NCBI GenBank assembly: GCA_023213395.1 | Contig: CM041465.1 | Coordinates: 138,391,741 to 138,455,740 of the forward strand | Direction of reading: 5' to 3' | DNA: 64,000 nucleotides | Origin: Cycas panzhihuaensis | Lineage: Eukaryota; Plantae; Cycadophyta | In this document: piece by piece, positions 5,087-50,685 of the stretch | Layout of the letters: each line of letters opens with the position of its first letter | Position numbering within the stretch: the stretch's first letter is position 1 | The notes under the pieces: generated by a model | Seen by the model: only the letters and a program-made list of their open reading frames with translations | Database searches by the model: none | What the model was told of the DNA's origin: nothing | Program-made: the position numbers and the translations under genes

Positions 5087-5442
5087 TGTAGGATGCACAC
5101 ACTCAATAATCAAAAACTGAAAATAATCAACATAAACCAATGTATAGATCTATTGATATATTTCATTGAATAGCAAATATGTACATATATAATAATGTAA
5201 AACCATTACGAGAGAGCCTTTTAGGAATATGAAGAGTTGATCATGCAAGGTGACACATGGCACCTTGTATCAATAACATTACAATGAGGTGAGAGCAAAA
5301 GAGACCCGACACATATAGACTCACAACCTCAAGTTATTACTAACCCTAACTATGATACTAACACCCTTATAATACACTAACATAGTAACATCACTTTAAA
5401 CATTAAACATATGACCTTTAAATTAAACACTATATTCCAATG
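5087..5442 (-). repeat. 3' LTR of the outer non-autonomous element
   Basis: Colinear with 31872-32237 (TGTAGGATGCAC...TATATTCCAA). Confidence 0.9.
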
Positions 5443-7748: not shown

Positions 7749-8413
7749 TGTTATATAAACTAGATCCCAATAACCAAAAACTGCCACCAAGATCTAAACT
7801 ATTTTGCAACTAGTTATATGAATCAAAACTAAAATTTAACATGCAACTTCTTAAACCAAAAATAATATAATAAATGAATTAGAAAGACAAGCATCACATA
7901 TACACTTGATATAATATACTAAAACCCTAGCAGTGTGCTAGGAAAACATCCACATAGGAAAGGTATTGATCTTTATTATCAAAGAATAGAGAAATATATA
8001 TAATCTGCACTTGAATGCTCATAGCAATAATAACTAGCTGCCTCTACTCAATACAATACATCTAATACATCGAACACCATCAACATAATAAAAAAACACC
8101 CTAAATCAAGTTATATGAGAGAGTCATACAATGCACAAATCTCGACCATTAAATTTAGGATATTTTGAACGAATTACCCCAATTCTCTTTACAATTTAGT
8201 ATACTTTTCAGTACTAGCTTTTTGGGTCAGGGGCTACCGCTCCTGAACACCCTCTTTATGGGGGAGGGTGGGGTTTTGGATCCCCCCGCACCCCCTGGAT
8301 AAGGGAAGCTCCTACCCTCCTTAGATTCCCCCCGTAGAAGTTTTGGGGAAAAACTGTGCTACCAACCTATCGAAATTTTAGCCTCCAAAACATTATTGTC
8401 ACATTATCTAACA
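7749..8413 (-). repeat. Copia 3' LTR
   Basis: Starts TGTTATATAAACTAGATCCC, ends ATCTAACA, and matches 29456-30115. Confidence 0.9.
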
Positions 8414-9434: not shown

Positions 9435-12221
9435 TGTTTCCCGGCTACTGAGAATGGATACAAATAGGTCGACCTAGGTAGGCTTAGGTATACTTCTCCC
9501 TTTTCACTTGTATTATTTCTTTGGAGAGGTTGACAGAAGTGTTGCCTCGTTGTATGACTGCTTGCTTCATTTGTATGATCACTTTGCATTTGTTCCCTGT
9601 TCATGCTGCTTGTTATATTGTGAGCCTGTGACGACCCAGCAGGACCTGCGTTTCTGCAAGGTAGGCATCCTCATGGCACTTTATGACTCTCCGCGCTATC
9701 TCCACACCGCCTCGAGTTTTTGTTAGACTGTATGACCCGTTTATGCCTCGACATTAAGCTCCTAACACCTCATTTCTTGGACCTTTTGCCTGTTGATGTT
9801 TGCTTGCCTCTGTCCACATGCATTTTGGACTGTCTCAACCACCTATACAGGAGGGCCAACCCCTCCCAGGCCTGCCACATCACCTCCCAAAGCTCCTAGA
9901 ACCCAGAATTCTGCCATTCTGGCTTTCTAGTCCCGCACTGCTGTAAACTTAGCAGTACCGCGAAGTTTACCGCAGTACTGCAAAGTTTGCCATGGTGCGA
10001 CTATTGTCAGTTGTTTTTTAGAAAATTGCTATGGAAATTCTTGCGTTTCCCGCAGAATCGCCACATGGCCTCACGTCCACCTCAGCCCTATTCATGCCCT
10101 ATTCGCCCACTTAGAGCCAGGATGGGTATAAGTATCCAAACCCTCATTATTTTGAGGTCTTCTTAAATCATTTTTTTTGCTCTCTTAAACAACAGTTCCT
10201 ACTACAACTTCTACTCTCCTTCTCTTCCTTCTATAGGTGTACTTGCAAGCCTGTGTTTCCTGCAACCTCAGGCCAGGATCCACCTACAACTACTTGCTTC
10301 CACGATGGGAAGCCTCTCTCCAGGTTTTATCAAGCAATTTTAGTGTTGATTCTTCTCCAACTCACCCAGCAAGTGTCCCTTTCGGTTGTCCATTGGAATC
10401 TCTCCTAAATACCCTTGTAGGGGTCCTCTTCTCCGCTGATAGCAGCCCCAGATCTACCGGATATCCGCCCAGCAGGTCTTCCAAACCCTTTTCTTCTAGA
10501 TTTATGGTAAGTTACCTCCATATTGGACCTACTTCTTGTCTTGTTTGCCTGTTTCCTTCAGGTTTCACCATAGCAAGATTTGTTTCTATTATATTTGGCT
10601 TGTTGCTTTCCGGCTCTACCTTTCTCTTCGCTAGTTTTCTTCGAGGGAGCAGCGAGAGAAGAGTCACAAGGTTGGGTGAAGAGAGCAAGATGGGGCAGCC
10701 GACTTTTCAGTCCTTCTCTCCAAGGGTAATCCCTTTCCACCTTCTCTTCTCTTGCTCTATGCTCTTCTTGGGATAATTAGGAGTGATTAAGCCCTAGGCC
10801 TGCGTTGGATTATCAGCATATACAGCCTCTCGCTATGCTGATTCCAGGCCTGCTCGCCTCTTATTTGGACCCCTATAGTGTCCCTCAGGTTATTGGGTAT
10901 CCCTTAATATCATTGGCAAGGGTTGTGCACTGGATTGCTGCCCATAGCAACTCTGTGTCTTGCATATTTCCCCAACGCTTCGTTACCCTTTTCTCTGCAT
11001 CTCTTGGTTGTCCTTAGTTGTCTTTACCATTACCTTGTTGTGCTTGAGAGTTATGTGGAGAACCCATTAGAGGGTTAGCCATCATGAGGCTTCCCTTACT
11101 CCATTTTTGCTTGATGTTTATCCTTGCTTGAGAGAGGGTTTTAGAGCTTATTGTACCAACTATTTTTCCTAACACTCTAACATAAGTATCACATATATAC
11201 TTGCATATACATAGTTTATCTTTTGCAGCCCCTTCTCGGAAGGGATAAGTCCATGCATGTGTAGGTTGTCGTGGTGCTCTTGTAAAGGTATAAAGCGTTC
11301 GGATCTGGGTAAGGTCTACCATTTTGTTCTTTACTTTGGCTTCTTTCCTTTTTGCTTTATTTTCATAAAGGGGAAGGTAAGGGAGCCCCCACCATTCACG
11401 TCAAGACTTGGTTACACATCCGTGGATTGACGCATGGACGTACGTTACACGTGGGTGAGGTCCCCCATCGACCACTACATCTTCCAAGTACATACATCCT
11501 TCCTCTAACTCTCGTTTTCCCTTTCTTACTTTTGTTTAGGATATATGTGTTAGTTAAATAAGTCACACATAAAAGTAAAAGGAGAAACAGTATCTTTTAT
11601 TTATGCTTGTATATTTGTACATCGTATACTCAACCCTCATAGGAAAAGAACCTATAGCAAACTCACCCTTCCCTTTTCCTTTTCTTGCAAAGCCTAGCTT
11701 ACCCTTTCGGTTCATTCCACTTTGGATTGTTTGCTTGCATATGTGACACCTATTCCCGTTTCCTTTCCTGTTTCCTTTTCGAATCGTTAGGGGAAACTTT
11801 AGTTTAGTTATCCCATTCTCTTTTCTCTCTCCTCCTCTTGGCCTTATTTGCTTGGTCAAATAACCAAGAGGAACCCGGCCACATCATAGGCTATCGCCTA
11901 CCTTATCCCTGCTCGTTTCCCTCCATCATAGGGAAATCTTTGAGGACTCCTCTCTTCCCCTTCCGACCATCCAAGGGTGGGAGGATCTTCCTCTTGAGTT
12001 TATTCGGGCTACCTTTCTTGTTTTCCCTCTTTCTCTCTTCGATAGAAGACCACCCCAAGGTAATTGGGTATCATCCGCAGGTCCCAAACTCTTGCTTCGG
12101 TGCATGGGGTGCCCTGCGTGATACTTACTTTGCTTGTAGGTTTTCACCCGCACCCTCGATATCACCATCGACCATCATCATTCCTACCAAGCTTAGTGAT
12201 TATCCCATAAATGCATATCCA
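9435..12221 (+). repeat. Tat 5' LTR
   Basis: Colinear with 23674-26460. TATA-like TATAAG at 10127. Confidence 0.95.
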
Positions 12222-12477
12222 CTGGTGACTATACTGGGGACTTGTCAGTAAGGGAGCTAGTTCCTATCTCTTTCTATTGATACTATTACCTTTTAGTGGT
12301 CTCCTCCACTTCATCTCCTTTGTTGGACAAACCCCAACACGCATGCCTTGCATCCCTTTCCTTCTTCTAAAGTGTTGGTAAGTGTTGTATGCGACGCTTT
12401 TTACGCCGCCTACGTGGTTTGTCTTCTTTCAATATCCTAGGTATTGTCTTCTTTCATCGTCGAATTATGATTCGAAA

Positions 12478-15400
12478 ATGGAAGGGTACCCTTCCAATTG
12501 GGCCTATCATGCTTTTGCTTCGGGAGCTCATGAGTTCCCCGCATCCATTCTAGGATCCACTCAAGATGGTGACGATCCTATTTACTACCTGGGTGACCAA
12601 CGTCACCCACTAGACACCCATCCTTCTACTCATGCGGTAGAAGGCTCATCTCCTTTTGAGATCCACCACCTAGTTGGTGATTCTTATGAGGAGCGCCCTA
12701 AGGGGTCTACTTCATTTGAGGTCCCATCTACCTCTTATTATCATGTGGATACTCCTCCTGCTGATGTGGTTGAAGCACTTAGTGAGTGCTTTCGAGCTGT
12801 TCGTCTTCAATCGCGTTCTAGATGGTTTGAAGATGTTTTACGTGGTGGAGCGCCTTCTTCATCCACTCCTGTCCCACCTCCTTCATCCGCATCCACACCT
12901 CCCACAACGAGTAACCTTTTTATGCCTACACATTCGTCACGCTCCATCCCTACACCTACTTTGGGGACGCATGTTGCACCTTCTATCCCTCATCATGGTC
13001 CTAGTTCTTCGGAACCCTCTCGTGGTATGTCTTTCTCCTAGCTTGGGGTTAGCATACCTTTCCCAAGTCAAAATAGCATGCCACCTCCTAACGTGGCGTA
13101 TACATTTCTTAGTAGGCCTAAAGGCCCTACTAATGTTACTATCACTAGTCATGCATGTGGGACCCGCTCCCACGTATCCTCCAAACCAATCCAATGGTTC
13201 TTCTCTTTACATATCCCCAGGTTATACTTCTCAACCTTGGGGGCAGGGTAAAGGGAATTATATTCTAGCTTACGGGGTAGACCCGCTACATACATATGGG
13301 GTTGCACCACCCACGAGTGGCCGATATGGACAAAACCCAATTCCACACCCTTCCTTTCCTCCATCCTGCATAGCTCCTTATGCTGCACCTTTGCAAGGAA
13401 TCCCAACTTCCCTCCAAGACACTTACCCTCAAGCCCCTTTCCAGCATGGGACGCTCCCTCAAGGAGGGATGGGTTTACCACCCCCATCCATTCCTTATTC
13501 ATTACCTCCTACATTGCTTGTCGATCCTACGGTCCAGGCAAGGTCACGTCCCTTTATGGATTATAGATCGACACCATTATCTGTTGAGGCATTAAGAACC
13601 AACCTACCACCTCATCCTCCCGAAGTTCCTAAGTTTGACAGAACTTCATCACAAGACCCAACAGAGCACGTCCGTAGTTTCTCTATGGCATGTATTGATT
13701 GCTAGGCCTATAATCACATCCTAATGAAATTATTTCCATGATCCTTACAAGGCGATGCCCTTAAGTGGTTTTATCACCTACCAGCTCATTCCATTTTCTC
13801 GTTCCAGCAACTTGTGGACGAGTTCATCAATTATTTTGATGTTACTCGTCTATTCGAAAGTGGAATGAAATCCCTTCTTTCGCTCAAATAAGGGCACGAT
13901 GAGATGAATTGTGACTTTATGCGGCGATTTCATGACCTTCTTCATTCCACTAAGGCTACTTTACCTGAGGAATTGAAGAGGGATCTCTTCATTAATGCAC
14001 TTCTCCCTGAAGTCCATGTAGAAGTCCTTAAGATGGGGGCGACTACATGCGACTCTGCTATCGCAAAGTGCTTAGCACTTGAGGCTATTGAGATCCAGGC
14101 TGGACTCAAGAAGCCTCTCAAGCCCTCACAACGTCATGAGGTACCACCTCAAACTAAAGAGACCAAACCACAATAATCCACTAAGTCCTCTTCCCATCCG
14201 ACTGAGAAGACCTTAGATCTGCTCACCTCTGCCATATATTCATTCGAATGTACGATGAAGGAACTTAAACTGCAAGCTCCTTCATCACCTACTTCCAACA
14301 AACAAATCCAGAAAGCTAATCAAGCTTCCTTCCCTAAGAACGGTAACGCCCAATCCTCTCAAGCGAGGAAGATAGATTCCTCACTTGAAAAGAAGTGGTG
14401 TTCCATTCATGGGGAGTGTTTTCATGACGAGTCACGTTGTAGGGCCTAGCATCCCAGGGATTCCCCTTAATGTGACTCATCCCCTAAATAGGCCTCAAGG
14501 CCAACCTTGACCAACTGGTCCATAAGGATCCATTCCCTGAACATGGGGAACATGATTGTAATGCTCAACCCAAAAATAACTAGAACCGGGGAAGATCCCT
14601 GAATTCTCGTCCTTCCCACGATAAAGGAAAGGGCACTCGGGATTCATCTTCTTCTTCACGTTCCCCTCACTCACGTACTCCTTCACCTTCGCAGTCCCGG
14701 AACAAGGGAAATAAGGTAATCCAGATGCTTGAGGCTGCTCCTTTATATGCCTTTACTCAGTCTTAAGCCACTAAAGAGGCAGTTGGTGCCTCTTCTTCTG
14801 CTCCACACTCTGATCCTCTTCTGGAAACCTCCCTTTCGGAAGTCCCATTATGTCCTAAGGCCATTCCTATATGTCCTGGTCATTACGATTTTCGAAGGGT
14901 GCTTATCCAACCTACTGTGAAGGGTAAGCCTTTCTTTATCGTTGATGAGCTCCATACTATCGCTGTGGGAATGTCCTTGATGGATGTTTTGAGGAATTGT
15001 CCCAAATAACGGACTCTCCTTTTGGAAGCTTTAGGATCGAATGGTGTGCCCATCCACACTTTGGGTGTTACTCAAAGCCATGAGCTTGTCATTTCCTTTG
15101 ACCCTAAAGACCTTCCCCCTGCATGTGAAAGGGAATGCCAATGGAACTTCCCATTTACCATCACCATTGACACACTTGACTATACTCTGTGAATGACCGT
15201 TGTCGACAACAGTTATTCCGTGAATGCCATGCCCTTGCGTGTTATGCAAGAGCTTGGCATTTCTACTTTGGAACCTGTTCCATGGCGATGCTAAAGCTAT
15301 GATGGTAATGAAAAGACTCCATTGGGATCTATTTCGATCCCACTTACTCTCAAGGGTAAGACTGTCCTCACTGACATTGTAGTCCTTGACGTTGACGTCA

Positions 15401-18400
15401 ACTACAATCTTCTCTTGGGTCGACCATGGCTTGATCAGATGGGAGCTATGTGTTCGACCCGCTGGAGGCAACTCAAGTTTGTCCATGATGGACGGATGAG
15501 GGTTGTTTCCTGCGAACGCCTACCTATTAAGCAAACTCGTCTGATTAACCAAGCGAGCCAAGGCCCTTCTACTCACACCTCAGCTTGCTCCATCGGCATA
15601 CCTGATCCATCCCACATTGAAGAAGATCACGCACCTTCTTCCTCTAGTCTTATGCGCTTTGCTCCTATCAGTGTTGGGAGTTATGGGTACCTTACCTCGT
15701 TTAGCGACGATGAGTCCCATGATGAGGATGAGGGCTTTCCTCACCCCATTTCTTTCCTCCATACTAGTAGGATGCACCCTTCTTGTTCTAGGTCCTAACC
15801 TAGAACCCCTCTCGTTGGTGAGACTAGTCACCCCTTTGTATCATATATCGTTGCACGCTTTGACCCACCAGTCGCTGGTTCTTCTTCTTCATCACCCCCT
15901 GCAAGTAATGGTTTCAAGGAACTGCCTTTTGCTCCTTCCGAGGAGCCCCTTCCTAGCTCTCTCCTAGAGTCTTCTGAGGAGGTTAGATAGCCTGATGACC
16001 ACCACGGTCCCGTTGTTCCCACTTCCTCCAACACTTCATCTATTCAGAGTAAGGTCATCCATGGGGTGGATTACTTCGAAGATGATGAAGCCTTGCTTGA
16101 GCACCTAGTGGGCTCCGTGCCCAACTTTTCTTCTGATCACCATAGGCTTGGCCACTAGAAGATTCTGGCGATTGGGTCCACACTCACTGACCTAGTTCCA
16201 TCCCCTATTCCACCTCTTCCTATTGACCTTGCCCCTCTCCATTTCGAGGAGAGGAATGCCATGTGCATGGGGGTGACCCAGGACATAGTCTTAGCCCCTG
16301 GCAAGGTCATTAAGGTAGGGGCAGAATGCTCTCCTAATGAAGTAAGGGAATATTCCCTTTTGTTCCTGGAGTTCCGGGATGTCTTTGCATAGGATTATTT
16401 TGACATGAATGGAATCGATCCCTCCATTATCACCCATAATCTCACTACCATTCTTGGTGCTTGACCCGTGCACTAGAAGCAGCATCTTCTCCACCCTAAA
16501 CTCTCAGCCACTGTCAAGATAGAGGTTGAGAAGCTTTTGGATGCTAGACTTATTACTTCTATCGACTACCCTAAATGGGTATCCAACATTATTCCCATTG
16601 CTAAAAAGAACGTGACCATCCGGATATGTATTGATTTCCGTGATATTAACAATGCATGCCCTAAAGATAACTTTCCACTCCCCTTCATCAATCAAATCAT
16701 TGATCGAACTACTAGATTTGAAGTTATGTCCTTGATGGACGGCTTCTCCAGTTATAATCAAATTCAGATATCTCCTAAAGACTGCCATAAGATAGCCTTC
16801 ACTACCCCGTGGGGTACCTTTGCCTACAAGGCAATGCCCTTTGGCCTTAAAAATATAGGCGTTCCTTACCAAAGAGCAATGCACTTTATTTTCCATGACC
16901 TCATTGACAACACATTAGAGGTCTTTATGGATGATGTGATGGGCCTGTCATGTGTCAAGGCCCATCATCCCTCCGACTTGCGGGCTATCTTCACGTAATG
17001 CCGTAAGTACCATGTAAGCCTAAACCTGCTCAAATGTGTGTTTGCCGTTACTTCTGTCAAACTCCTTGGATTTCTTATGTCAAAACAAGGAATTCAGATT
17101 GACCCCGACAAGGTCAAGGCAATCCTTGATATGTCGCCTCCTATAACCTAATGACAGATCAAGTTGTTTCTAGGTAGGCTCAGTTTCCTCAGGCACTTCC
17201 TGGCAGACTTCGCTGTAAGCGCCAAACACCTAACAAACCTATTGAAGAAGGGAGCTCTATTTGTTTGGTCTGATAAGGCCCAACAGGCCTTCGAAGGACT
17301 TAAGGAAGCCCTTGCTTCTGCTCCTACGTTGGCATCCCCTTGTTTCGATAGGCCCTTCATTCTCTATACCTCAGTGATTGATGAGTCCCTATGCACTATG
17401 TTGGCTTAGGAGGACGACTCAAGAGTTGAGAGAGTCATTTACTTTATCAGTCGCACCCTTATGGCTGCCGAACTCAACTACTCTCTGGCCGAGAAGGAGT
17501 GTCTCTCCTAAGTCCACACGACCAAGAAGTTTAGACATTACTTGCTTGGTAACACCACCAAGGTGATCGTCTAGTCTGATCCCTTGCAATATCTACTTAC
17601 TCGTTCAGACCTAACGGGTAGGGCTAGCCGTTGGGCTGTCCTACTTTAGGAGTTCGATCTTTGTATCATCAAAAGGAAATTGAAGAAAGGGATGGTAGTG
17701 GCTGAGCAGCTCGCAGATGCCCCTATCCCTAACTCGCTTGATACCCTTGTTGACGATTCCCTTCCTAATGAGTCTATCTTGACTATTCAGGACGTCTCTC
17801 TCCATTTACTCATTGACAATGAGTGGTATGGTGACATTGTGCGATATCTCACACAACAGTAGTACCACCCTGAAGCTAGTAGTAAGGTTAGATCTCGTAT
17901 CTGGACTTCTGCTAGGCAATACTTCCTCATGGACGAAGTATTGTACAAGAGGTCTTTCGATTGGATCCTCCTCCGCTGCGTCGTCACCAACGAAGTAGAC
18001 CAAATACTCTGTGAATGTCACCATGGTATTTGCGGGGGCCAATCTATAGCCCAAAGCATCCTCCGCATGGGTTGCTATTGGCCGTCCCTCTTCAAGGACA
18101 CCCATGCTTTTGCCTTGAGGTGCCAGTGATGCCAGGAACACGCTAACATCTCCCATGTGCCTTCTGAGGCCCTTCACCCTATCATATCTCTGTGGCCTTT
18201 CACTCAATGAGGTCTAGACCTCATCGGGGCTATCTCCCCACCTTCCTCGTCGCAACACAAGTTTATATTGACTACTATGGAATACTTTACTAAATGGGCG
18301 AAGGCCATCCCTCTAGTTACTACCCTAGGTAAGATGATAGCTACCTTCATTTACCAGTATATCATTTACTGCTTCGGGATTCCTGATGTGCTGATTACTG

Positions 18401-19056
18401 ACAACAGAATCCCCTTTTGTAACAAGGAGATGGATGAGCTTTGTGAGAAGTTTAAAATCTCTCACAAAACTTCCTCTCCTTACTACCCCCAGGCAAATGG
18501 TCAAGTAGAGTCGTTCAACAAGACTCTCGTTAACATTTTAAAGAAAATTGTCACTCAGTCTCAAAGAGACTGGCACCTTCAGCTCCCTTTTGCTTTGTGG
18601 GCTTACCGTACCTATGTTCGTTCTGCCACAGGAATGACCACGTTCTCCCTAGTTTACAGTACCGAGGCGGTACTCTTGTTGGAAGTGGAGATTCCCTCCT
18701 TGCGAGTTTCTCCTTAGTGTCTCGTCGATGAGGAGTCGATTCGTCAAGCTCGCCTCCTGGACCTCGAAGCTTTGGATGAGAGACGTTTAGCTGCCTACCA
18801 AGCTAACCTCGCATCCAAAGCTCGCTCACAAAGGACCTACGATAAACACCTTTGTTCTCGTCCTTTGCTTCCCATGGACCATGTCCTCAAATTGAAGTAT
18901 CTTCATGATCGCTTGGCCAAATTCAGGCCCAAATGGGTTGGCCCCTTTGTCGTCATCGAGAACCTCAGTAACTGCGCCTATAGGATCACCACCTTGGAGG
19001 CTCTAGAGTTTGAAAAAGCCGTAAACGAGAAATTCCTTAAGAAATTCTACTCGTGA
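12478..19056 (+). pseudogene. Tat gag-pol (GAG, PR, RT, RH, INT), interrupted by stops and frameshifts
   Basis: GAG: PEVPKFD...DPTEHV and WCSIH-x4-H-x4-C knuckle. PR: VVDNSYSVNAMP and YNLLLGRPWL. RT: ICIDFRDINNACPKD, DGFSSYNQI, FMDD. Degenerate RH: FILYTSVID. INT: ECHHGICGG, YFTKW, ITDN, SSPYYPQANGQVE, KFRPKWVGPF. Confidence 0.95.
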
Positions 19057-19689
19057 CCTCGTCGTCACCTTATTCATGCTCTGAAATAAGCCTAAACTAC
19101 CATCTTAAGTTCGTTTCCATTCCTCCTAGCCACGGGTGGAATGATGACTTAGGATGGCCTCTTCTATTTCCTTCTGGTTCCTCCTGCAAAACCCTCATTC
19201 CCATTTTCCTTGGGACCTTGTCCTCCTATTTGGGCATCCCCTAGTTAGGATGATGCTCTAAAGTATTGTCACTCCCCTCTTGCTCGATATTTCCTTTGCA
19301 TATCCCACTATGCTCCCATGTGGACATGCGTGTTGCCCTATTTCCTAACCCCACATATGTTTATCACAACTACTCATGGTGGTCATGTGTGCTCCTATTA
19401 GGTATATGGCCCTACATGAAAGGAAATATGCACAACCTAAACAAATATCATAACATAAAACTCATATAGTAATCAGCTCAAAATGCAACCACGCATATCC
19501 TCGTGCATCCGTACACCCTTACACACACATAAACATGTAAACAAAATATACACATCATCATATATCAAAATGGGATACCAGTCACCCCGTCTATATACAT
19601 CAAAAATCATGTGTCATGTCATACATATAGTGTGATACATCATCTATGGGAAGTTAGTGTCCTTGTAGGGGGGGTACAATCATGTGGCT

Positions 19690-21642
19690 ATATATGGTGG
19701 CCCCCTGGAGGTTCGTGCTTTCCCTTGTCAAAATCATATGTACTATCCTACTGCTGCCCCGCCCCTAAGGCATCATCTCCTGGTCGATGTGATCTCTCTC
19801 CTAGGGACCACATCCCTCCGAGACTCCTCCTCAGTCTCTACGAGCTCCCTGCCTCGCTCCCCTCATCTCGTGGCCTCCTCGGGGTCACCGCTAGCGTATG
19901 AGTCTGTGTCCTGCTCCGCGCCAACCTCGATGCCATATCCTCTATCAGTTAATTGTATTGGGCATGGATACGATCCTGCTCCATCTCTATGAGGTGGAGC
20001 CTCTCCTCCATCCCCCAGAGTTGCTCCTCCATCACTGCTAGCTGGATATGGCTCCCCATATCCCCTCTGGCTCCTCCCTAAGCCTCCAATACCTGCACCC
20101 GACTCTGTAGACCGTCCCTCTCAGATCGGATGGTGTCCATATCAGCCTACTAATGTCTCGCACGTGCCTTGTGCTCTTGGGACTCTATTATCTATATATC
20201 CCTCACCCGTATCAATGGGGTGAATGCTACCGTGTGACCACCTATCGATCTAGGCTCATCTCCTTCCTGGATGGGAGGTTGTCCCTCTACGTAGGCCTAA
20301 GGGAAAATCTCTCGGACTACTGCCTCTACCAGCCTCTGGATGTCCACTATGCCTACAACCCAACATGCCACGTATAAATCCATGTCCATATAAATATCAA
20401 ACCAAAATCAAACTATGTATGTATCTAGCAATCAAACAACGATAAGAAATGATCATGTCTCACCTGGTGTGGTTGTCAGCTCCTCGACTTAGGCTACTGC
20501 CTCTCCCTTTGGTGCTCCGCCAGCTGCTGGTACCTCCTCCTCTAGTACCTCTTATGCCATGGCCTCAGCTCCTAGAGCATCCCTCCTCTCTACGGCTAGT
20601 GCTTCTACTACCTCTCCAAATCTCCTGACGATCCGTAGCCTATGGGCTCGTGTCACTGGGCCTCTACCCTCGTCTGCAGCTCCTGATGGGCTTGGCTCTC
20701 CACCTGCAGCCCCGGACGGACCTGCCTCTCCTACAACTCATGATGGGCCAGCCCCATCACCTCCATCACTGCCCCCATCATCTCTTAGGGGCACTCCTGC
20801 TCCTCCTACCTCGTCATCACTATCCCACCTCACTGCCCTATACAGATCTGCTATGTAATCTGTCATGGTGAGGAGGTCTAATGATGTGGCCTCCACTGAG
20901 CGACGGACATGAGCCTGGTCCTCGGTCCCTCTGAGCCTAGTCTACCACCTATATACCATCGGGGCCCACTCTGCAATAGGGCATAGTCCCCTCGTCGGTG
21001 CCACTGCTCTAAAGTAGTCGAAGAACCAACACTGCAATAACGTGCTATACGAGAGTCCTCCTTTGCCCGCTATCCTAATAGCGTCTAGCTGTGCGATGAG
21101 ATTTGTCGCTATCAGAGTGGACCAGTCCATCCCCTCTCTCGCCTCGCATCAGCGTACCGTGTCCATCCATCCTCCTAGTTTGTCCCTATAATTCTGTTTC
21201 TGGGAGATCCGAAATAGAATGCATAGTGTGATCAACTTCCTCACTCGAGGAACCCCTGACATAACCATGGTCTAGAGAGGAATCTCTTGCCTCTCCCATC
21301 TGTCCAAACCTATAAAGTATGTGGACGCCTCCATGTGTGCTGCCTCATTCTTTGGCAAGACTCTAGTGCCACGGCCTCGGCCGGTACTCCCAATATCCTC
21401 CTGATATCTCCTGACGTTACTAATACATCTCCCACCTGGGGTAGGTGGAAGACATGCCTCCTCCTGTCTCAGTGCGATATAATATCTATCAACAACCACT
21501 AGTCTGACATATACAGAGGCGTCCTCATGACCTTCAGCAGGCCACACCTCCGTAGGATCTCCTGGTCCTTCCTAGTCATCATCTCAATGAAGCTCAGCAT
21601 TGCCATCCCAATGTTTTCGCGGTTCTCTACCACTATCACAAT
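19690..21642 (-). pseudogene. Antisense plant mobile domain (PMD, aminotransferase-like) gene inside the Tat element, with a coiled-coil-like tail
   Basis: WLLIDIISH*DRRRHVFHLPQVGDVLVTSGDIRRILGVP (PMD N-motif) and DWSTLIATNLIAQL...GGLSYSTLLQCWFFDYF (PMD C-motif). A GT-AG intron at 20463-20353 joins ELTTTPG/IVDIQRLVE in frame. The 3' end is approximate. Confidence 0.8.
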
Positions 21643-21784
21643 CTGCAAAACACCACCAAACTAGTCAGCACTTGGCCCACACTTGCTCTCTATCCTCTAG
21701 ACTATCTCTCAGCCTTGCCTGATCGAGATTTGGGGCTCCTCGGGCCCCCATCTCCTTTTTTCTGCAGTTCTGCCTTCACACCAT

Positions 21785-21814
21785 GCCAAACTCCGCGGTA
21801 CCGCGGAGTTTGGC
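21785..21814. promoter_or_regulatory. Perfect 30-bp palindrome (candidate cis-element)
   Basis: GCCAAACTCCGCGGTACCGCGGAGTTTGGC is its own reverse complement. A related copy lies in the LTR at 9943-9970. The palindrome is certain; a regulatory role is inferred. Confidence 0.55.
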
Positions 21815-22305
21815 TCAAGTCCATGGCATCGGGCCCCGCAAAGAAAGATCACAAGACCGCGATCTTTGCCGCGGTGCAAATGGCACCCCCCCAAAAGGGG
21901 GGGGTTTCTTGCCCAAAAAATCCAAAAATTCTTCTAGTGGGCCACAGTCAGGCCCACTAGGACTATGGCTGCCTAATGCCCCAGTCCTGCCTCTTTTTGG
22001 GTCTAATTTAAACTCCGGGAGGCCTTTTCTTGCCCATACGGGGCTTAAAGATCTACATAAAAATCATAAAAAATAGTAAACTTTGACATGAGAGATGGGT
22101 TGGGTTTTTTATGATCCACTCACTAGATCTGGCCCAGCGCTCGCCATCTCGTCTCTATGATCCCAATGTCTGTCCTCTAGCCCTGATCCAACGATCCAAT
22201 CTCTTTCTGCGTGCCTCTGAAGTCGGATAGCGCTTCGCTGCGTAAGGGAATGGCTCTGGATTTGTTCGAGAGCCCGTGAAAATGAATCTTATTTTCATCA
22301 ATTTT

Positions 22306-22316
22306 CCTTATATAGG
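22306..22316 (-). promoter_or_regulatory. Candidate TATA box for the antisense PMD transcript
   Basis: Minus strand reads CCTATATAAGG, upstream of a GTGAGT donor (22123) and a TTTTGCAG acceptor (21643). Confidence 0.4.
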
Positions 22317-22857
22317 CGAGGACCCCGACAGGCACTGTCTCCATTTTCGCTCTCATGACAGCCCTTTGGATCGTCTCTTACCCCTAATCATCTTTTCCTT
22401 CTGGCCCTGTCTCCCATTGTGCTCCCATAGCCTTCATCTCGCTTTTCCTTGTGAGTGCATTTATGGCACCCTACCAATGCATTTTTTCACAGGGTCCCTT
22501 TTGTCTCGTTTGCGTGTCACTCCCGTGTATGCCCGAGTTTATACTTGTTTAGCTTATTTTGCCATCCTAGACTCATTTTTGCAGCTCATTCCTACCCCTA
22601 GGGTCTCCAAAGGGAATGCTCCCTCTATTCAGAGCCATTCTTTGCTTCCCAAAGCAACCTTTGGCACCCCAATGTGCCCTTTTGCCGCCCACTTCTAGCC
22701 AGTGGTTGAATCGCCTACTCTTGTCCTTGGGTAGCCTCATTGCTAGGTCCTCCTACCCTTCACAGCCATTTATTACTTGCCATACGAGTCTCTTTGTGAT
22801 TCGACTCTTATATTATTGCACATTTTCCTCTACCGAGACTTTTTTCTGTCATCATCT

Positions 22858-23235
22858 ATGTCTCTCTTCATCTTTACCAACGGTGGAAGCCGCAGTAATC
22901 CCGGACCTTCTGTCGTCGCATGGATTCTTCGCAGCTCTTCCAGACATGACTTCCTGCATTCTAGAATCTTTCTCCCTGAGGCCACCAATAACGAAGCCGA
23001 GTACATGGCCGTTATCAAGGCCCTAACTGATGCGCTCCATTTCCATCGCGAATCGGTTGTTCTTCTTTACAACTCCTAGGTTGTGGTGTCCCATCTCACC
23101 TAGGTTTACCAGGTGTGATACCCTTACTTGAAAGCCCTCGCTTTGACCACCAAGTCTCTTTTAGCTTGTTTCCAGTATGTCGACATCTGACACATTCCTT
23201 GGGCCCTCAATATTGAGGTAGATAGTCTTGTTCAC
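22858..23235 (+). pseudogene. Additional archaeal-type RNase H (aRH) domain downstream of integrase
   Basis: FIFTNGGSRSNPGPS...EATNNEAEYMAVIKALTDAL...YNS*VVV...HIPWALNIEVDSL, matching RNase HI DGGSRGNPG / TNNxAEY / DSxLVV / HIPRxxNxxAD. Confidence 0.88.
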
Positions 23236-23673
23236 CTCATAGATAGTCTTGTTCACCTCATCCTTGAGCACCGCCTTCCTCTTCTTGCTGACCGTCCCTG
23301 AGACTTGCCCGGTTGCTCTGTCACCCAAGTCCCAGGCCATCGTGCACATCACCTTGCAATCCATTCGCACCTCCAAAAGCTAGCTGCTAATGAGGTTAAA
23401 CTATGGCGACTACCAGGTTTGCTCATTCACCCTTTTTACCTGACTTTATCATGCACATCTCTTTGCACTTTTGTGATGGAGGCAGTCCCTATGTTGTCTT
23501 CACCTCTATCCTCGTATCCACACGTTCCGCCACGACACTCGTCGGTACCCTTGACTTCTGTTATGATTATGATTTATATATGTACATACACATGTGCTAC
23601 TAACAGTTGTGTTGCCAGCATTCGCCATCGCACCATGCTCCTGAGCGGTGAGGCTCTGCTGCCAAGGGGGCAG

Positions 23674-26460
23674 TGTTTCCCAGCTACTCGGAATGGATAA
23701 GGATAGGTCAACCTAGTTAGGCTCAAGTATACTTCTCCCTTTTCACTTGTACTATTTCTTTGGAAAGGTTGACAAAAGTGTTGCCTCGTTGCATGACTGC
23801 TTGCTTCATTTATATGATCACTTTACATTTGTTGCCTGTTCATGCTGCTTGTCATATTGTGAGCCTATGACGACCCAGTGGGACCTACCTTTCCGCAAGG
23901 TAGGCATTCCCATGGCACTTTACGACTCTCCGCGATGTCTCCACACCGCCTTGAGTTTCTATTAGACTGTATGTCCCATTCATCCCTCGACCTTGAGCTC
24001 CTAGCACCTCATTTCTGGGACCTTTTGCCTGTTGATGTTTGCTTGCCTCTGTCCACGTGCATTTTGGACTATCTCAGCCACTTAGACAGGAGGGCCAGCC
24101 CCTCCCAGGCCTGCCACATCACCTCCCAAAGCTCCTGGAACCTAAAATTGCCATTTGGCTTTTACGGTCCCACACCATCAGTAAACTTAGTGAGTGCTGA
24201 AGTTTCTTGGCGGTACCATGAGGTTTGCCATGGTGCGACTATTATCAGTTATTTTTTAAAAAACTGCTATGGCAATTCTCGCATTTCTTGTGGAATCGCC
24301 ACGTGGCCTCGCATCCGCCTTAGCCCTATTCGTGCCATATTCACCTACTTAAGGTTGGGATGGGTATAAGTATCCAAACCCTCATCATTTTGAGGGCTTC
24401 TTAGATCATTTTTTTCACTCTCTTACATAATAGTTCCTGCTGCAACTTCTGCTCTCCTTCTCTTCCTGTTATAGGTGTACTTGTAGGCCTATGTTTCCTG
24501 TAACCTCAGGCTAGGATCTACCTGCAACTACTTACTTCCATGGTAGGAAGCCTCTCTCTAAGTTTTATCAAGCAATTTTGGTGTTGATTCTTCTCCAACT
24601 CACCCAGCAAGTGTCACTTTGGACAGTCCATTGGAATCTCTCCTGCAAACCCTTGCACGGGTCCTCTTCTCCACTGATAGCAAGCCCAAATCTGCCATAT
24701 ATCTGCCCAGTAGATCTTCCGAACTATTTTCTTCTGGATTTATGGTAAGTTACCTCCATATTGGACCTACTTCTTGTCTTGTTTGCCTGTTTCCTTCAGG
24801 TTTCACCATAGCAAGATTTGTTTCCATTATATTTGGCTCGTTGCTTTCTGGCTCTACCTTTCTCTCCACTAGTTTTCTTCGAGGGAGTAGCGAGAGAATA
24901 GTCACAAGGTTGAGTGAAGAGAGCAAGGCGAGGCAGCCCCCCTTTTCAGTCCTTCTCTCCAAGGGTAATCCCTTCCCACCTTCTCTTCTCTTGCTCCATG
25001 CTCTTCTTGGGATTATTAGGAGTGATTGAGCCTTAGGCCTGCGCTGGATTATCAGCATATGCAGCCTCTTGCTGCGTTGATTCTAGGACTGCTCGCCTTT
25101 TGTTTGGACCCCCGTAGTGTCCCTCGGGTTGTTGGGTATCCCTTGATATCATTGGCAAGGGTTGTGCACCGGATTGCTGCCCATAGCAACTCTATGTCTT
25201 GCATATTTCCCCAATGCTTCGTTACCCTTTTCTTTGCATCTCTTGGTTGTCCTTAGTTGTCTTTACCATTACCTTGCTGTGCTTGAGAGTTGTGTGGAAA
25301 ACCCAGCAGAGGGTTAGCCATCCTGAGGCTTCCCTTACTCCATTTTTGCTTGATGTTTATCCTTGCTTGAGAGAGGGTTTTAGAGCTTGTTGCAGTAACT
25401 ATTTTTCCTAACACTCTAACATAAGTATCACATATATACTTGCATATACATAGTTTATCTTTTGTAGCCCCTTCTCAGAAGGGATAAGTCCATGCATGTG
25501 CAGGTTGTCGTGGTGCTCTTGCGAAGGTATAAAGCGTTCGGATCTGGGTAAGGTCTACCATTTTGTTCTTTGCTTTGGCTTCTTTCCTTTTTGCTTTCTT
25601 TTCATAAAGGGGAAGGTAAGGGAGCCCCCACCATTCACGTCAAGACTTGGTTACGCATCCATGGATTGACGCAAGGACGTACGTTGCACGTGGGTGAGGT
25701 CCCCCATCGGCCGCTACATCTTCCGGGTATGTACATCCTTCCTCTAACTCTCGTTTTTCCTTTCTTACTTTTGTTTAGGATCTATGTGTTAGTTAAATAG
25801 GTCACACATAAAAGTAAAAGGGAAAACAGTATATTTTATTTACATTTGTATATTTGTACATTGTATACTCAACCCTCATAGCAAAAGGACCTATAGGAAA
25901 CTCACCCTTCCCTTTTCCTTTTCTTGCAAAGCCTAGCTTGCCCTTTTGGTTCATTCCACTTGGGATTGTTTACTTGTATATGTGACACCTATTCCCATTT
26001 CCTTTCCTGTTTTCTTTTCAAATCGTTAAGGGAAACTTTGGTTTAGTTGTCCCATTCTCTTTTCTCTCTCATCCTCTTGGCCTTATTTGCTTGGTTAAAT
26101 AACCAAGAGGAACCTGGCCACATCGTAAGCTATCGCCTACCTTGTTCCCGCTCGTTTCCCTCCATCATAAGGAAACCTTTGAGGACTCTTTTCTTCCCCT
26201 TCCGGCCACCCAAGGGTGGGAGGATCTTCCTCTCGAGTTTATCTGGGCTACCTTTCTTGTTTTCCCTCTTTCTCTCTTCGATAAAGGACCACCCCAAGGT
26301 AATTGGGTATCATCCGCAGGTCCCAAACTCTTGCTCTGGTGCATGAGGCACCCTGCGTGATACTTACTTTGCTTGTAGGTTTTCACCCGCACCCTCAATA
26401 TCACCATCGACCATCATCATTCCTACCAAGCTTAGCGATTATCCCGTAGACGCGCATCCA
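23674..26460 (+). repeat. Tat 3' LTR
   Basis: Starts TGTTTCCCAGCTACT after the PPT and ends CATCCA. Same length as the 5' LTR. Confidence 0.95.
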
Positions 26461-29383
26461 AATACCAAGATAATAAATAATCCATTGTCTAAGAATTTAA
26501 AGTAAACACAATGATCATACTCACTTCTTTTAAAATTTTAGCTCTCCATGAAGGTATTAAACTTCCTATACCATTGCTTGGTACAATGATTTCCTGAGCC
26601 TATAAATAACTCTTTTCTTGTCATCCTATACAAACCCTTATGGTTGATCCATATAGATCTCTTTATCTAAATCTCCATATAGAAATGTTATTTTTACATC
26701 TAACTACTCAAACTCTAAATCAAGAGAAGCTATCAATGCTAACAAAACCCAAATTGAAACAAGTTTGATAACTGGTGAAAAGATCTCATGAAAGTCAATA
26801 CTTACTTTCGATATAAAACCTTTAGCTACCAGTCTTACTCTATATTTATCAATCTTTCTATCAACATCTATTTTCTTCTTAAAAACCCACCTGCAACCAA
26901 CAATCTTCTAACCATGTGGAAGTTCTACCAAGTCCCATGAATTATTTTCTTCAAAGCATCTAATTCTTCCTGCATAACCCTCTTCCACTTCTCACTATGG
27001 ATATCATCTACTACTTCCTCATTAAATGTAGGCTCACCATTATTAGAAACCAAAGTAATAGAAATAGAAGGGTGTACCTATCAGGTGGATGACTTATTTA
27101 TATAGACCTTCTAACAGTTGGTGGAGGAGTGTCCATATACTCCTATAAATCTGTTGTAGATTCATCTTGAAAAAAGTCTTCTTACTCTTCTATTTTTAAA
27201 AATGGCTAGGTCTCAAGCTTGACCTGTTGATGTTCAAATTTCTACTCCTATTTCACTTCAACTTCTACACTATCTAATTTTATAAAGGGAGATTCATCAA
27301 ACATAACATCTCTATTAATAATCATTTTGTAGGTAGTGGGATCCCATAACCTATATCCCTTCACACTATCTCTATCACCATAACTAACAAAGATATATCT
27401 CTTAGATTTTGGGTCTAACTTTTATTAGTCAAGGCATAAGCATCATAACCAAAAACTTTCAAATTTGAATAGTCACATACATGTCCAGTCTATACCTCTT
27501 TAGGAATCTTATAGTCTATTACAAGTGATAGGGACCTATTTACCAAATAATAAGTTATCTAGATATCTTCTGCCCATAAGCCCTGCTCCACTCCTACATT
27601 ACTTAGCATGCTTCTTGCTCTTTCCAAGAGTGTCATATTCATGTACTCAGTTATGTCATTCTATTGTGGAGTATAACTAGTGGTCTTATACCTTTCAATC
27701 CTAGCTTTTCTGCAATAGTTCTCAAACTCCAAGGAGTTGAACTCACCTCCATTATCAGTTCTTAAATATTTGATTGACCTGTCAATGCTCTTCTTAACTA
27801 GAGCCTTACACTGCTTAAACACACTAAATACTTTAGATTTCTTTTTTAAAAAATAGACCCATACTTTTATAGAGCAATCATCTATAAATGTGATAAAGTA
27901 CAATGATCCTCTATAAGATATTAAAGGGGCTAGTTCCCACACATCTGAATATACATAATCCAGAACACGTTTACTAGTGTAACTCCCTACTTTAAACCTG
28001 AGTCTATACTACTTTAAAAAAATCTAATGTTTACAAAAAGTCAAATCTGAAAGCTGTAAATTATGAAGCAACTTACAGTTTATCAGCATCTTAAGTTCTC
28101 TCTCACTCATGTGCCCAAGTCTCTGATGCCATAACTGAGCTAGATCTTTTGCAGTCTTTAATGTTGTAGCTACATGGCTGCCATATATAGTTCCCACTAA
28201 AATGTAAAGGTTTCCTTTCTTTAAGGCTTTCATAACAACCAAGGCGCCCTTTGACACCTTTAAGACTCCTTCATAATCTGTGTACTTATGACCACCAGAA
28301 TCTAGTTCATACAAAGAAATTATATTCCTTTTTAGATCAAGTACATGTCTAACTTTAGTTAATATTCTTACTATACCATTGAACATTTTAATTCTGATGC
28401 TACCAATGCCCATTGTTTTGTAGGAAACTTCATTTTCCATAAGCACATCACCACCATCAAGAGGTTGGTATAATGAGAACCAACTCTTATGTAGACACAT
28501 ATGGTGTGAAACACTTGAATATAATAATCAATCATGTTGATAATGGGAAATATTATAAGCAACCAAGACATCATCATTTGTACCTTGATTTGACTCCACA
28601 CGATTAGCCTCATTGGTAGGATCTTCATTTTTCTGGAACTTCTTTCTTTTATAACAATCCTTCTTGAGATGACATGTCTTATTATAGTGCCAATATCTGA
28701 GCTTACTCTTCTTGCCTTTTGACTTTGACCTTGATGTGTTCCTAGAGCTTTGTCCTCACTCAATCATTCTGCCTCTTGATGTCATAGCTTTTGGTGTGGA
28801 GGTTTCAAGACTGAACTGCCTTCTCACTTCTTCTATCAGCAAAGCACTTATAATAGAATCATAGTCTAATTCATCTATAATGCTAAAACTAATTGAGGTG
28901 ACAATATTATCCCAAGATTCTAGTAATGAATATAACAAGGTAACAACCTGACCATCCTCAATCGTGACATCGATACTAGCCAATTGACAAATAAAAGTAT
29001 TGAAAATATTTAAATGATCAATATTTTTGTACCTTCCTTCATCTGCAATGAGTACAACTACCTCTTCAAGTAGATTTGATTCGTCACTGATTTTGTCATA
29101 TACAAGCCTTCCAACTGGATCCGTAATCCTATTGTTGTCTACTCCCCTTCGATATTAAATAAAACTTCATCCACTAAGCATAATTGTATTGTGCTAGTAG
29201 CCCTTTTGTCTAGATCATCCCATTTGTCATCATTCATCCCCGCGGGTTTTTCAATTTGCCTACAAAAGCTTTGTACAAACCTTGTTATACCAGAAGATCA
29301 TACATTTTCAACTTCCACAACTCGAAGTTATTCTTGCTATTAAATTTCTCCACCTTGAACTTTACATTTGCCAATTTTACCAT
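26461..29383 (-). pseudogene. Copia gag-PR-INT-RT(N) (degenerate)
   Basis: MVKLANVKFKVEKFNSKNNFELWKLKM start, LWHQRLGHMSE, YFITFIDDCS, LRTDNGGEF, GCRWVFK and FSPV motifs. Confidence 0.92.
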
Positions 29384-29455: not shown

Positions 29456-30115
29456 TATTGTGTAAACTAGATCCCAATAACCAGAAACCACCACAAAGAT
29501 CTAAATTATTTTATAATTAATTACAAGAATCAAAACTGAATTTTAACATACAAGTTCTTAAACCAGAGATAATACAATAAATGAATTAGAAAGCCAAGCA
29601 TCACATATATGCCCGATATAACGTGGTAAAACCCTAGCAGTGTGCTAGGAAAACATCCATATAGGAAAGGTATCAATCTTTATTATCAAAGAATGGAGAA
29701 ATATAAATAATCTATAGCAAAATACTCATAGCAATAATAACTAGTTGTCTCTACTCAATACAGTATATCCAATACATTGAACACCATCAACATAATGAAA
29801 AAACACCTTAAATCAGGCTATATGAGAGTCATATAAGATATAAATCTTGACCATTAAATCAGAAGTATTTTAAATGAACAACCCTAATTCTCTTTACAAT
29901 TTAGTATGCTTTTCAGTGTTATCTTTTTGAGTTAAGGGCTACCACCCTTAAACCACCTCTTTACAAAGGGTTTCTGACTCCCCCCCGCCAACACCCCCTA
30001 GCCAAGGGGGACTCCTGCTCCTCTTAGATCCCCCCATAGAAGTTTGGGGAGAAAGTTGTGCTGCCAACCTATCAAAATTTTAGCCTCCAAAACATTATTA
30101 TTATATTATCTAATA
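29456..30115 (-). repeat. Copia 5' LTR
   Basis: Matches 7749-8413 and is adjacent to the PBS. Confidence 0.9.
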
Positions 30116-30917: not shown

Positions 30918-31047
30918 TCACTTGCTACCTCGGGCCACCATCTCTTAGTAGTGTGAAAATTATTCTTATCTCTAAGGATGAATTTGTTGATTAAATTTAG
31001 CAATAAAATCCTCCATAAGCTTGTTTAATTCTTTATTAGGGATGGGA
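30918..31047 (-). pseudogene. Captured C-terminus of a DUF761 (cotton-fibre-expressed-like) gene
   Basis: Translates ELNKLMEDFIAKFNQQIHP*R*E*FSHY*EMVARGSK*. Reverting single substitutions gives the DUF761-type signature ELN..VEDFI.KFN.Q.RLQRQES...Y.EM..RG, ending at a stop. Confidence 0.78.
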
Positions 31048-31569
31048 AGCTTGTTAATGATTCTGAAAACATTCAAACCAGTAATGAGATCGGCATCCTT
31101 GGTGGCCTATCTTTGAGAATCATTGAAATAAGCTGGCATAGTAATAATAGTGTTCTTTATAATCTAACCCAAAAAATGCCTCTACAATCTCTTTCATCTT
31201 ACTCAAGACCATAGAGGAAATTTCTTCAAGAGAAAAATGTTTCTTCTCATCTTTATATCTAACCTCAATCATGGGCTTATCATCAAGACCAACAAAAACC
31301 TTAAAAGGCCACATCTTCATGTCCTTCTACATAGAAGGATCATTGAAACACATTCAGATCAATCTATTTACATCAAATACAGTATTCTGTGGATTCATGG
31401 ATGCCTAATTCTTAGTTATGTCTCCTATGAGGCATTTAGTATTAGTGAAAACCACATAAGAGGGAGTAGTCCTATTCCCCTAATCATTTGGAGTTATCTC
31501 CACTTGATCATACTACCATACACCAATGCAGTTGTACATCATTCCCAAATCAATTCCAACTACCTTCAT
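31048..31569 (-). pseudogene. HSP70: Captured cytosolic HSP70 N-terminal (ATPase) fragment, intronless, with stops and one frameshift
   Basis: VGIDLG...GVW*YDQVEI..ND*GNRTTPSYV.FT...NPQNTVFD...KMWPFKV...[13 protein letters not shown]...[14 protein letters not shown]...GLNVFRIIN. Confidence 0.95.
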
Positions 31570-31871
31570 ATAAATCATTTCCCATGCATAAATTAAGTTG
31601 AAAGCCTAATGAAAATCATAATACGGGGATAGAAAATAGTAATATAATCTAAGGGCAGGTCATAACACCAAAGACACCAAGCAATAGCTAACCATAGTTA
31701 ATTCCAACATCACCACATCATCATTATAGCAACAATTAGAGCCCATAGAAAGACTCTTAGATTGAATGCACACATAGTTATATTATACATATCACTCACA
31801 TCCTAGGTTTAAGCAGTGCCATCTTGAGAAGTACGAGGATGGCTACCTTTAAAACTTACTCTAATAGTACA

Positions 31872-32237
31872 TGTAAGATGCACGCACTCGATAATCAAGA
31901 ACTAAAAATTATCAACATAAACCAATGTATAGATCTATTGATATGTTTCACTGAATATTGAATGTATACATATATATAGCAATGTAAAATTGTTATAAGA
32001 GAGGCTTTTTAGAATATGAAGAGTTGATCATGAAAGGTAACACATGGCACCTTGTATGATTAATGTTATAATGATATTACAATGAGGTGAGAGTAAATGA
32101 GACCCCATACATATAGGGTCACATCCTCAAACTATTACTAATCCTAACTATGACACTAATACCTTTATAATGCACTAACATAACATCACTTTAAACATTA
32201 AACATATGACCTTTAAATTAAACATTATATTCCAACA
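31872..32237 (-). repeat. 5' LTR of the outer non-autonomous element
   Basis: TGTAAGATGCAC...ATTCCAACA followed by TSD ATTAT. Confidence 0.9.
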
Positions 32238-49915: not shown

Positions 49916-50404
49916 TTGATGAAAAGGCAACAAATACTGCAGTCACTTCAAGACAACATCAGGACCCTTACAAAAATCAAAGATCTAAAACAGAAAATTT
50001 TAGAACAGCCATATTAGGAAATGAGTCCCTCAATCAACTAATATTTCTCAACAAATAACAAAATTTTCCAGTGACCTCTTGATGAAAAGGCAACAAGTAT
50101 TGCAATCACTTCAAGACAACATCAGGACACTTAAGAAAATCAAAGATCTAAAACAGAAAATTTTAGAACAGCCATATTAGGAAATGAGTCCCTCAATCAA
50201 CTAATGTTTCTCAACAAATAACAGAATTTTCCAGTGACCTCTTGATGAAAAGGCAACAAATACTGCAGTCACTTCAAGACAACATCAGGACCCTTATGAA
50301 AATCAAAGATCTAAAACAGAAAATTTTAAAACAGCCATTTTAGGAAATAAGTCCCTCAATCAACTAATATTTCTCAACAAATAACAAAATTTTCCAGTGA
50401 CCTC
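49916..50404. repeat. Three near-identical 163-bp tandem units downstream of CPN60
   Basis: TTGATGAAAAGGCAAC starts at 49916, 50079 and 50242. Confidence 0.95.
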
Positions 50405-50685
50405 TTGACCTCTTTGATTACATTTTCACCCCACAGACAGCTATCTTGAAGCAACTGCAAGGTGCTTCAATCGACAAGCCTTTTGGCCAGCTTGGACATA
50501 TAATCAAATGCTCAACTAGGGAAGAAGCGGTGGTATAATTAGCGTTACGTTCAAAATAAATATATCAAATCTAAATAACCTGCAGTAAACTAAATCCTAC
50601 TTTCCAACCATTGCCAACTAGGCCTCGTAACTGGGAGCCACACCAAACTAGAATGGCAGCACACCCAACTCAATAAAAGCCTCTC

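Follow-up and report, generated by a model that had tools for sequence, protein, structure and literature searches.

The described systems closest to the locus analysed here are the TatIII retrotransposons of REXdb, which are defined by an additional archaeal-type RNase H (aRH) located after the integrase (INT) and are represented by 39 elements of 12.7–17.3 kb with a 5-bp target site duplication (TSD) (Neumann 2019, PMC6317226, available part). TatIII equals lineage III of Ustyantsev 2015 (PMC4408406) and structure #3, clusters Tat H/I, of Biryukov 2023 (PMC10508981). According to the available part of the TatIII description, 18% of the REXdb elements carry a 3′ reverse eORF of at least 250 codons, and their primer binding site (PBS) is of the tRNA-Arg (64%) or His type (PMC6317226). 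An aRH in a separate ORF has been reported from conifers, Cycas and Ginkgo, where its working was posed as a question, and degeneration of the native RNase H (RH) in Tat elements has been published as well (PMC10508981). In the available portions of two sources the aRH of lineage III lies near prokaryotic RNase HI (PMC4408406; text on Figure S3 of PMC10508981). Whether the aRH is fused or separate has been called controversial in a source whose available portion makes no mention of PMD, eORF or antisense genes (PMC13468544), and another reports PMD-A clades encoded by Gypsy elements, along with PMD proteins of hosts that take part in silencing (PMC5418596).

A decayed Tat element and its place among the lineages

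Within the window, the whole stretch of 64,000 nt that was analysed, lies a complete yet decayed Ty3/gypsy Tat element of 17,026 bp (9435–26460) with the following framework:

9435–12221, plus strand: 5′ LTR, 2,787 bp, TG...CA
12223–12240, plus strand: primer binding site, starting with TGG, one base past the 5′ LTR
12470–14500 (approximate bounds), plus strand: gag region, decayed
14500 (approximate start)–19056, plus strand: pol, with protease-like, RT, degenerate native RNase H and integrase parts
about 17350–17720, plus strand: native RNase H, degenerate
23663–23673, plus strand: polypurine tract
23674–26460, plus strand: 3′ LTR, 2,787 bp

The LTR pair is 90.3% identical by self-BLAST (K2P 0.102 across 2,781 columns), and the flanks AATAT and AATAC give a 5-bp TSD with four of five positions matching and one change. 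The PBS may be of the tRNA-Arg type, as in Ogre-like elements. Retrotrans_gag (PF03732) matches at about 13727–14000 (E 3.9e-7), and the pol frame, searched against Pfam with stops read as X, returns RVT_1, RT_RNaseH, rve and H2C2 in the order RT, native RNase H, zinc finger, integrase core, the protease match being weak (E 0.035). Decay of this copy is evident from the 13 stops in 871 codons of RT-INT (41 in shuffles). The element thus has the LTRs, PBS, polypurine tract and PR-RT-RH-INT order of the Tat clade (with the weak protease match just given), together with a native RH of degenerate catalytic core and an additional archaeal-type RNase H, whose Arg site reads W in this decayed copy.

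Within the clade, the aRH lies downstream of INT, as in TatIII, lineage III and structure #3, with which the element also shares the degenerate native RH. The antisense PMD ORF that TatIII has in the 3′ region would correspond to an antisense frame with a weak PMD match here. Its length falls within the 12.7–17.3 kb of TatIII, and the 5-bp TSD (4/5 matching) is likewise TatIII-like; the aRH groups nearer to prokaryotic RNase HI than to the Ogre/Retand aRH, as in TatIII, but on a long branch. The pol frame gives no RVT_3 or RNase_H match of the kind expected from an aRH between RH and INT, the mark of Ogre/Retand (structure #1), and no family matches in 14860–16440, the interval between PROT and RT where TatI/TatII (structure #2) have their aRH. 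We conclude that this is likely a decayed full-length Tat retrotransposon of the TatIII type (structure #3). The best INT matches are one protein at 77% and a Cryptomeria Pol at 58%, the rest lying at 41–53% over the full query, and from these matches and the lineage we infer a gymnosperm host.

Differences from the described systems concern the position of the aRH and its neighbour. In the text on lineage III the aRH sits at the very C-terminus of Pol (PMC4408406), whereas here it is 3.8 kb away, beyond an antisense gene; the text on structure #3 (PMC10508981) has a separate aRH ORF too and leaves a PMD gene unmentioned. Those Ogre/lineage V Tat elements that have an antisense PMD ORF likewise carry it in the region from pol to the 3′ LTR (431 Ogre 3′R hits for an antisense PMD ORF in the available part of PMC6317226), but in them the aRH forms part of Pol and stands between RH and INT (19/19 relatives with an aRH match). 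The gene23 of maize Grande (Retand) is similarly an antisense accessory gene in a long 3′ region with its own promoter (PMC7264820, available part), but it belongs to another protein family and has no aRH gene behind it. Tat structure #4 of mosses and Selaginella shares an RNase H outside Pol and a degenerate native RH (PMC10508981), but there the aRH ORF precedes gag, a 5′ position that allows direct translation of the genomic RNA.

The earlier note on this DNA knew of no description of INT / antisense PMD / aRH as a unit. In the published texts on Tat that we compared we did not find the order stated, but the literature on TatIII already describes each of its parts, namely a separate aRH after the integrase, decay of the native RH and an antisense PMD ORF in the 3′ region. 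The order is probably the ordinary TatIII layout and, in this comparison of running texts, the difference from the TatIII descriptions may be only in what was written. Neither an intron in the antisense PMD gene nor a promoter of the aRH was found described in this literature. For this Tat family the layout settles the matter of fused versus separate aRH, as a whole spliced antisense gene stands between Pol and aRH; with lineage and parts already described, what is added is a clearer view of the structure and a route that can be tested.

The surroundings of the element are themselves repetitive. A repeat pair (7756–8411 and 29463–30113, 82% alike) flanks the Tat element and contains pieces of a copia-type gag, gag-pre-integrase and integrase on the minus strand (ORFs 27661–29154, minus), and the Tat element is likely nested in an older copia element. 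Both elements lie in turn within an outer pair (5087–5440 and 31872–32235, 84% alike, TG-started), which points to nesting in three layers. Inside this outer pair, at about 31000–31650 on the minus strand, is what looks by eye like a decayed HSP70-like N-terminal fragment, and a Pfam NAD-GH match on the opposite strand is likely its antisense shadow. Three tandem copies of a 163-bp unit, 95–97% alike, occur at 49916–50408.

The end of Pol and the detached RNase H

The Pol frame terminates in ...KFLKKFYS, followed by a stop at 19054–19056. Among 42 integrase relatives the tail is matched in 27, 20 of which align to the last residues, and 19 of these 20 end within one residue of the same point; the relatives informative on the Pol end are mostly structure-#1 Tats, the nearest relative (77%) being cut short. 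Given this shared C-terminus, the stop at 19054 is natural, and we rule out that it is a product of decay.

The native RH reads FILYTSVID at 17356 and has S at Asp sites 1 and 3 of Ty3 RT-RH. Since six intact Tat Pols also lack Asp at these sites, the loss is a lineage-level decay, in agreement with the catalytic degeneracy that the earlier note had read from this motif. The second RNase H and the stretch before it are arranged as follows:

22315–22857, plus strand: non-coding stretch before the aRH, with six upstream ATGs in this copy
22858–23280, plus strand: stand-alone archaeal-type RNase H (aRH) ORF, ATG at 22858, 141-codon frame, dead in this copy

The aRH matches RVT_3 (E 1.8e-9) and RNase_H (E 1.4e-6) in Pfam, and its best PDB matches are the ribonuclease H1/HI chains 4e19, 4h8k, 3u3g and 3hst (E 7e-15 to 8e-13), 155-aa chains following at E 4e-4 or worse. 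In this copy the four acidic sites read N/E/N/D, the Arg site is W and the frame holds 4 stops, with no significant depletion relative to shuffles (5.2, p 0.40). At its C-terminus there is a short duplication (23226–23260) in which DSLVHLI occurs twice. In a tree of 30 rows, 12 of them prokaryotic RNase H and 17 aRHs of structure-#1 Tats, the aRH falls on the prokaryotic side (100/100), on a long branch (1.96) and next to prokaryotic rows that were found by their likeness to the query aRH; the placement agrees with published lineage III without proving membership. A homolog search with the read-through aRH retained 0 of 38 candidates, weak evidence given the decay of the query copy, and a metagenome scan gave 80 loci that match the aRH only, none matching pol or window DNA, and which were taken as prokaryotic RNase H.

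The ATG of the aRH lies 3,801 nt downstream of the integrase stop and beyond the antisense gene, where the earlier note had put it at ~3.8 kb. The aRH is nominally in the Pol frame, and the three plus frames of the gap contain 40, 56 and 36 stops, with a longest open run of 150 codons. Read-through from Pol to the aRH is therefore ruled out. The gap being closed in all plus frames (36–56 stops per frame), the aRH does fall outside an unspliced polyprotein and does require a separate route of expression, as had been proposed.

The antisense gene and the block across copies

Between Pol and the aRH, on the opposite strand, we find a gene with the following parts:

19380–19750, minus strand: predicted 3′ UTR of the antisense gene, U-rich with UGUA motifs; presumed-RNA signal falls here
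19750–20352, minus strand: last coding exon, decayed
20353–20463, minus strand: in-frame GT-AG intron, 111 nt, 67% AT, donor 20463, acceptor 20353
20464–21643, minus strand: main exon, PMD-like domain followed by an acidic/Gly linker
21644–22123, minus strand: candidate 5′-UTR intron, predicted from donor and acceptor motifs

The main exon has a frame break near 21360–21375, candidate ATGs at 21606–21579 and an acceptor-like site at 21643. Within the predicted 3′ UTR, a U-rich stretch with UGUA motifs at 19380–19700 suits such a role. The antisense frame contains 6 stops in 312 codons, as compared to 15.1 in shuffles (p 0.003), and because of this depletion the gene is real as a coding frame; in antisense blocks A and C the depletion is not significant. 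PF10536 (PMD) is the only family returned, at E 0.0037 (0.018 in another search) and 16.9 bits, below the cut-off of 34.9. Of the antisense PMD gene claimed in the earlier note, the coding frame thus stands while the PMD label is weak, and the span given there (21643–23673) leaves most of the gene, about 19400–21643, to the left of its start. At about 21456, in another minus-strand frame unscored by Pfam, there is, by eye, a likeness to the PMD N-terminal motif. The homolog search with the PMD stretch retained 0 of 509 candidates, again weak evidence with a decayed query, and the coiled-coil look of the last exon is not significant (p 0.22). Just upstream of the antisense coding exon, at 21690–21990, is a GC-rich cluster of strong hairpins with a fold energy of -125.8 kcal/mol over 301 nt, a figure without shuffle control; it could be a packaging, export or translation signal.

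Splicing of the antisense gene can be followed in X24, a single run that is RNA by guess and was chosen by the species label it shares with the best DNA run. A 977-nt contig of X24 is without exactly the 111-nt intron: it skips 119 letters with 8 between (net 111), these 8 letters differ from the exon end by four transitions only, and the 2-letter overhang is the shared AG. The same joint has depth 0 in six of six DNA runs, three of them whole and three in part with some joints uncounted. Together this shows splicing of the antisense gene for one related copy, in the presumed-RNA run. No joint for the predicted 5′-UTR intron (22123–21644) is among the joints listed.

The stretch, whole or in part, is present in 20 of the 24 runs listed (12 studies, 14 organism labels), and coverage was compared in seven runs under six organism labels. 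All 30 bins of the block are covered in X1, X3, X5, X17 and X19, and 29 of 30 in X20 and X24. This demonstrates that the INT / antisense / aRH block is family-wide, and its coverage in DNA runs under six organism labels rules out a one-off insertion in this copy, the outcome on which the earlier note would have given up its reading. Because no contig spans INT to aRH in the runs compared, their linkage in other copies is drawn from tiling. Depth over the PMD block is lower than over INT and aRH in the runs, and in X20 the block is thin (depth 0–13, as against 363–1061 at the INT end); either it diverges faster or it is absent from many copies. Individual DNA contigs skip the entire PMD/aRH block (19743–23383), in X3, or RT-INT (16562–18906), in X1, X3 and X5, which indicates that deletion derivatives exist.

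These comparisons bear on whether the aRH is a passenger whose expression has been lost, with host RNase H or residual native RH serving reverse transcription. The state of this copy would fit, as its aRH has lost two of four acidic residues and the Arg, contains 4 stops and has no obvious promoter. However, decay affects all of this copy (13 stops in RT-INT), so that the state of its aRH tells little about the family, and in the DNA runs depth over the aRH region matches that of pol, including in X20, where the PMD block fades. Other copies have 1-nt indels at 22495–22851, in the stretch before the aRH, and of the 12 indels listed (17 more lie beyond these) none falls inside the aRH ORF. With an aRH also present in 92% of the 39 TatIII elements of REXdb (PMC6317226, available part), we consider the passenger explanation unlikely, and the least probable of the alternatives.

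Routes to expression of the detached RNase H

The contigs of X24 carry no strand or start information and their depth cannot rank genes, so that its signal serves as a hint. Relative to X1, X24 depth has a median of 0.62e-4 (max 2.1) over 21 bins of LTR-gag-pol and of 35.8e-4 (min 8.7) over nine bins of 19410–23673, with a step at about 19700; relative to X17, it is 0–6.7e-3 in five bins below 19700 and 7.8–345e-3 in 25 bins above. About 303 of the 379 X24 records fall in the 3′ third, 209 of these 303 contigs being <90% alike to this copy. As a hint from strand-blind contigs, the signal is thus on the 3′ module and not on gag-pol, and 3′ bias alone would hardly produce so sharp a step where the antisense gene is predicted to end.

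Between the two genes of this module lies one further feature:

22307–22314, minus strand: TATA-like box, fitting TATAWAWR on the minus strand only

The earlier note had proposed a bidirectional promoter here, with a TATA that reads both ways. The box stands within CCTTATATAGG at 22306–22316, of which the minus strand alone fits TATAWAWR (TATATAAG vs TATATAGG), and TATATA occurs 6 times in 19057–23673. The bin with the box, 22260–22419, is deeper than its neighbours in four of four runs compared. A 960-nt X24 contig links a stretch ending at 22347 with 22638–22906 and so crosses the TATA; with parts of it on either side of the box, the data show no interruption such as would separate divergent transcripts. 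Its depth of 10.2 is like that of X24 pol contigs (7.8–12.2), and it may be genomic RNA or DNA. With a box that is one-directional by consensus and crossed by an X24 contig, the single shared bidirectional TATA is unsupported, and a head-to-head overlap of the two transcripts is more likely. X24 joints between 21981 and 22638 lack GT-AG ends, have unknown letters between and are read as diverged sequence. An X24 contig linking 21981 and 22211 with unknown letters between has a depth of 461, the deepest among the joints listed.

In the explanation that we favour, Pol stops after the integrase and the aRH is a separate small gene, likely transcribed apart from gag-pol; the 4.6-kb 3′ region functions as a module of two genes. 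The antisense gene would have its own minus-strand promoter near 22300 and end near 19400–19700, and since it is antisense to the genomic RNA, its intron and polyA signals would be unused there and would survive replication. An antisense promoter of its own has a precedent in Grande gene23 (PMC7264820, available part). The aRH would come from an internal sense transcript that starts in about 21900–22800 and runs to the 3′ LTR, and its protein, acting in trans, would take over from the degenerate native RNase H in reverse transcription, perhaps docking on the RT-tether. We infer the promoters, the strand over the aRH and the action in trans, and our confidence that the aRH is separately transcribed from an internal sense RNA and acts in trans is evenly balanced. 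Against a separate sense transcript are the lack of a canonical plus-strand TATA before the aRH and the six ATGs that precede it in this copy, and the low X24 signal over U3 (ratio 0.6–2.1e-4) should be at odds with a sense transcript ending in the 3′ LTR, unless the LTRs of the expressed families have diverged. A stronger version, with a split TatIII reverse transcriptase, is doubtful: an internal divergent promoter region would express two genes at levels far above gag-pol, in one direction a PMD regulator that is antisense and spliced, in the other a free-standing RNase H, which would be packaged into particles in trans and might also act on R-loops of host or element outside the particle.

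If the aRH is on its own transcript, then the RNase H for LTR reverse transcription can be provided in trans, and the element would represent a stage in the arrangement of tether plus RNase H at which retroviruses and Tat elements arrived independently of each other. If the reverse transcriptase is indeed split, an LTR retrotransposon would here have its essential RNase H under separate regulation, as a gene of its own. The coordinates given here allow a test of how a separate aRH is expressed, a question raised in the literature.

The RNA over the aRH could instead be antisense. In such a model the PMD transcript would start in the 3′ LTR or near a minus-strand TATA at 23580 and extend across the aRH, and the aRH protein would rarely be made, from genomic RNA by internal initiation or re-initiation. 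Canonical TATAs are indeed found on the minus strand at 23580 and 22314, whereas the plus strand has none from 20400 to 23570; X24 cover is unbroken over 19700–23673, without a gap at 22300, and 3′-LTR antisense promoters are known (PMC7264820, available part). However, X24 cover extends to 23640, past the start predicted from the 23580 box, the well-placed TATA and donor directly before the PMD exon favour a nearer promoter, and no efficient route would be left for an enzyme that the element seemingly needs. We therefore regard the antisense origin of this RNA as unlikely, and keep the internal sense transcript as the preferred source of the aRH.

If, on the other hand, the aRH is expressed like an env gene, it would be translated from a spliced subgenomic RNA that starts at the 5′ LTR promoter and joins a donor in the LTR/leader or late pol to an acceptor just before 22858, skipping the antisense gene. 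Donor-like sites are present at 10507, 12060 and 12378 and acceptor-like sites at 22584, 22765 and 22837, of which either of the last two would remove every upstream ATG, and precedents exist in the spliced env-like ORF of Bagy2 (PMC7264820, available part) and the gag-pol intron of Ogre (PMC4408406). We nonetheless judge this route unlikely, including the long-range splicing from pol that the earlier note had offered: among the joints listed (15 of 437; 15 of 67) none leads from LTR, leader or pol to the aRH, the X24 signal over LTR and leader is ~58-fold below that of the 3′ module (a hint, as above), and the would-be intron at 22315–22857 is covered as well as the aRH itself.
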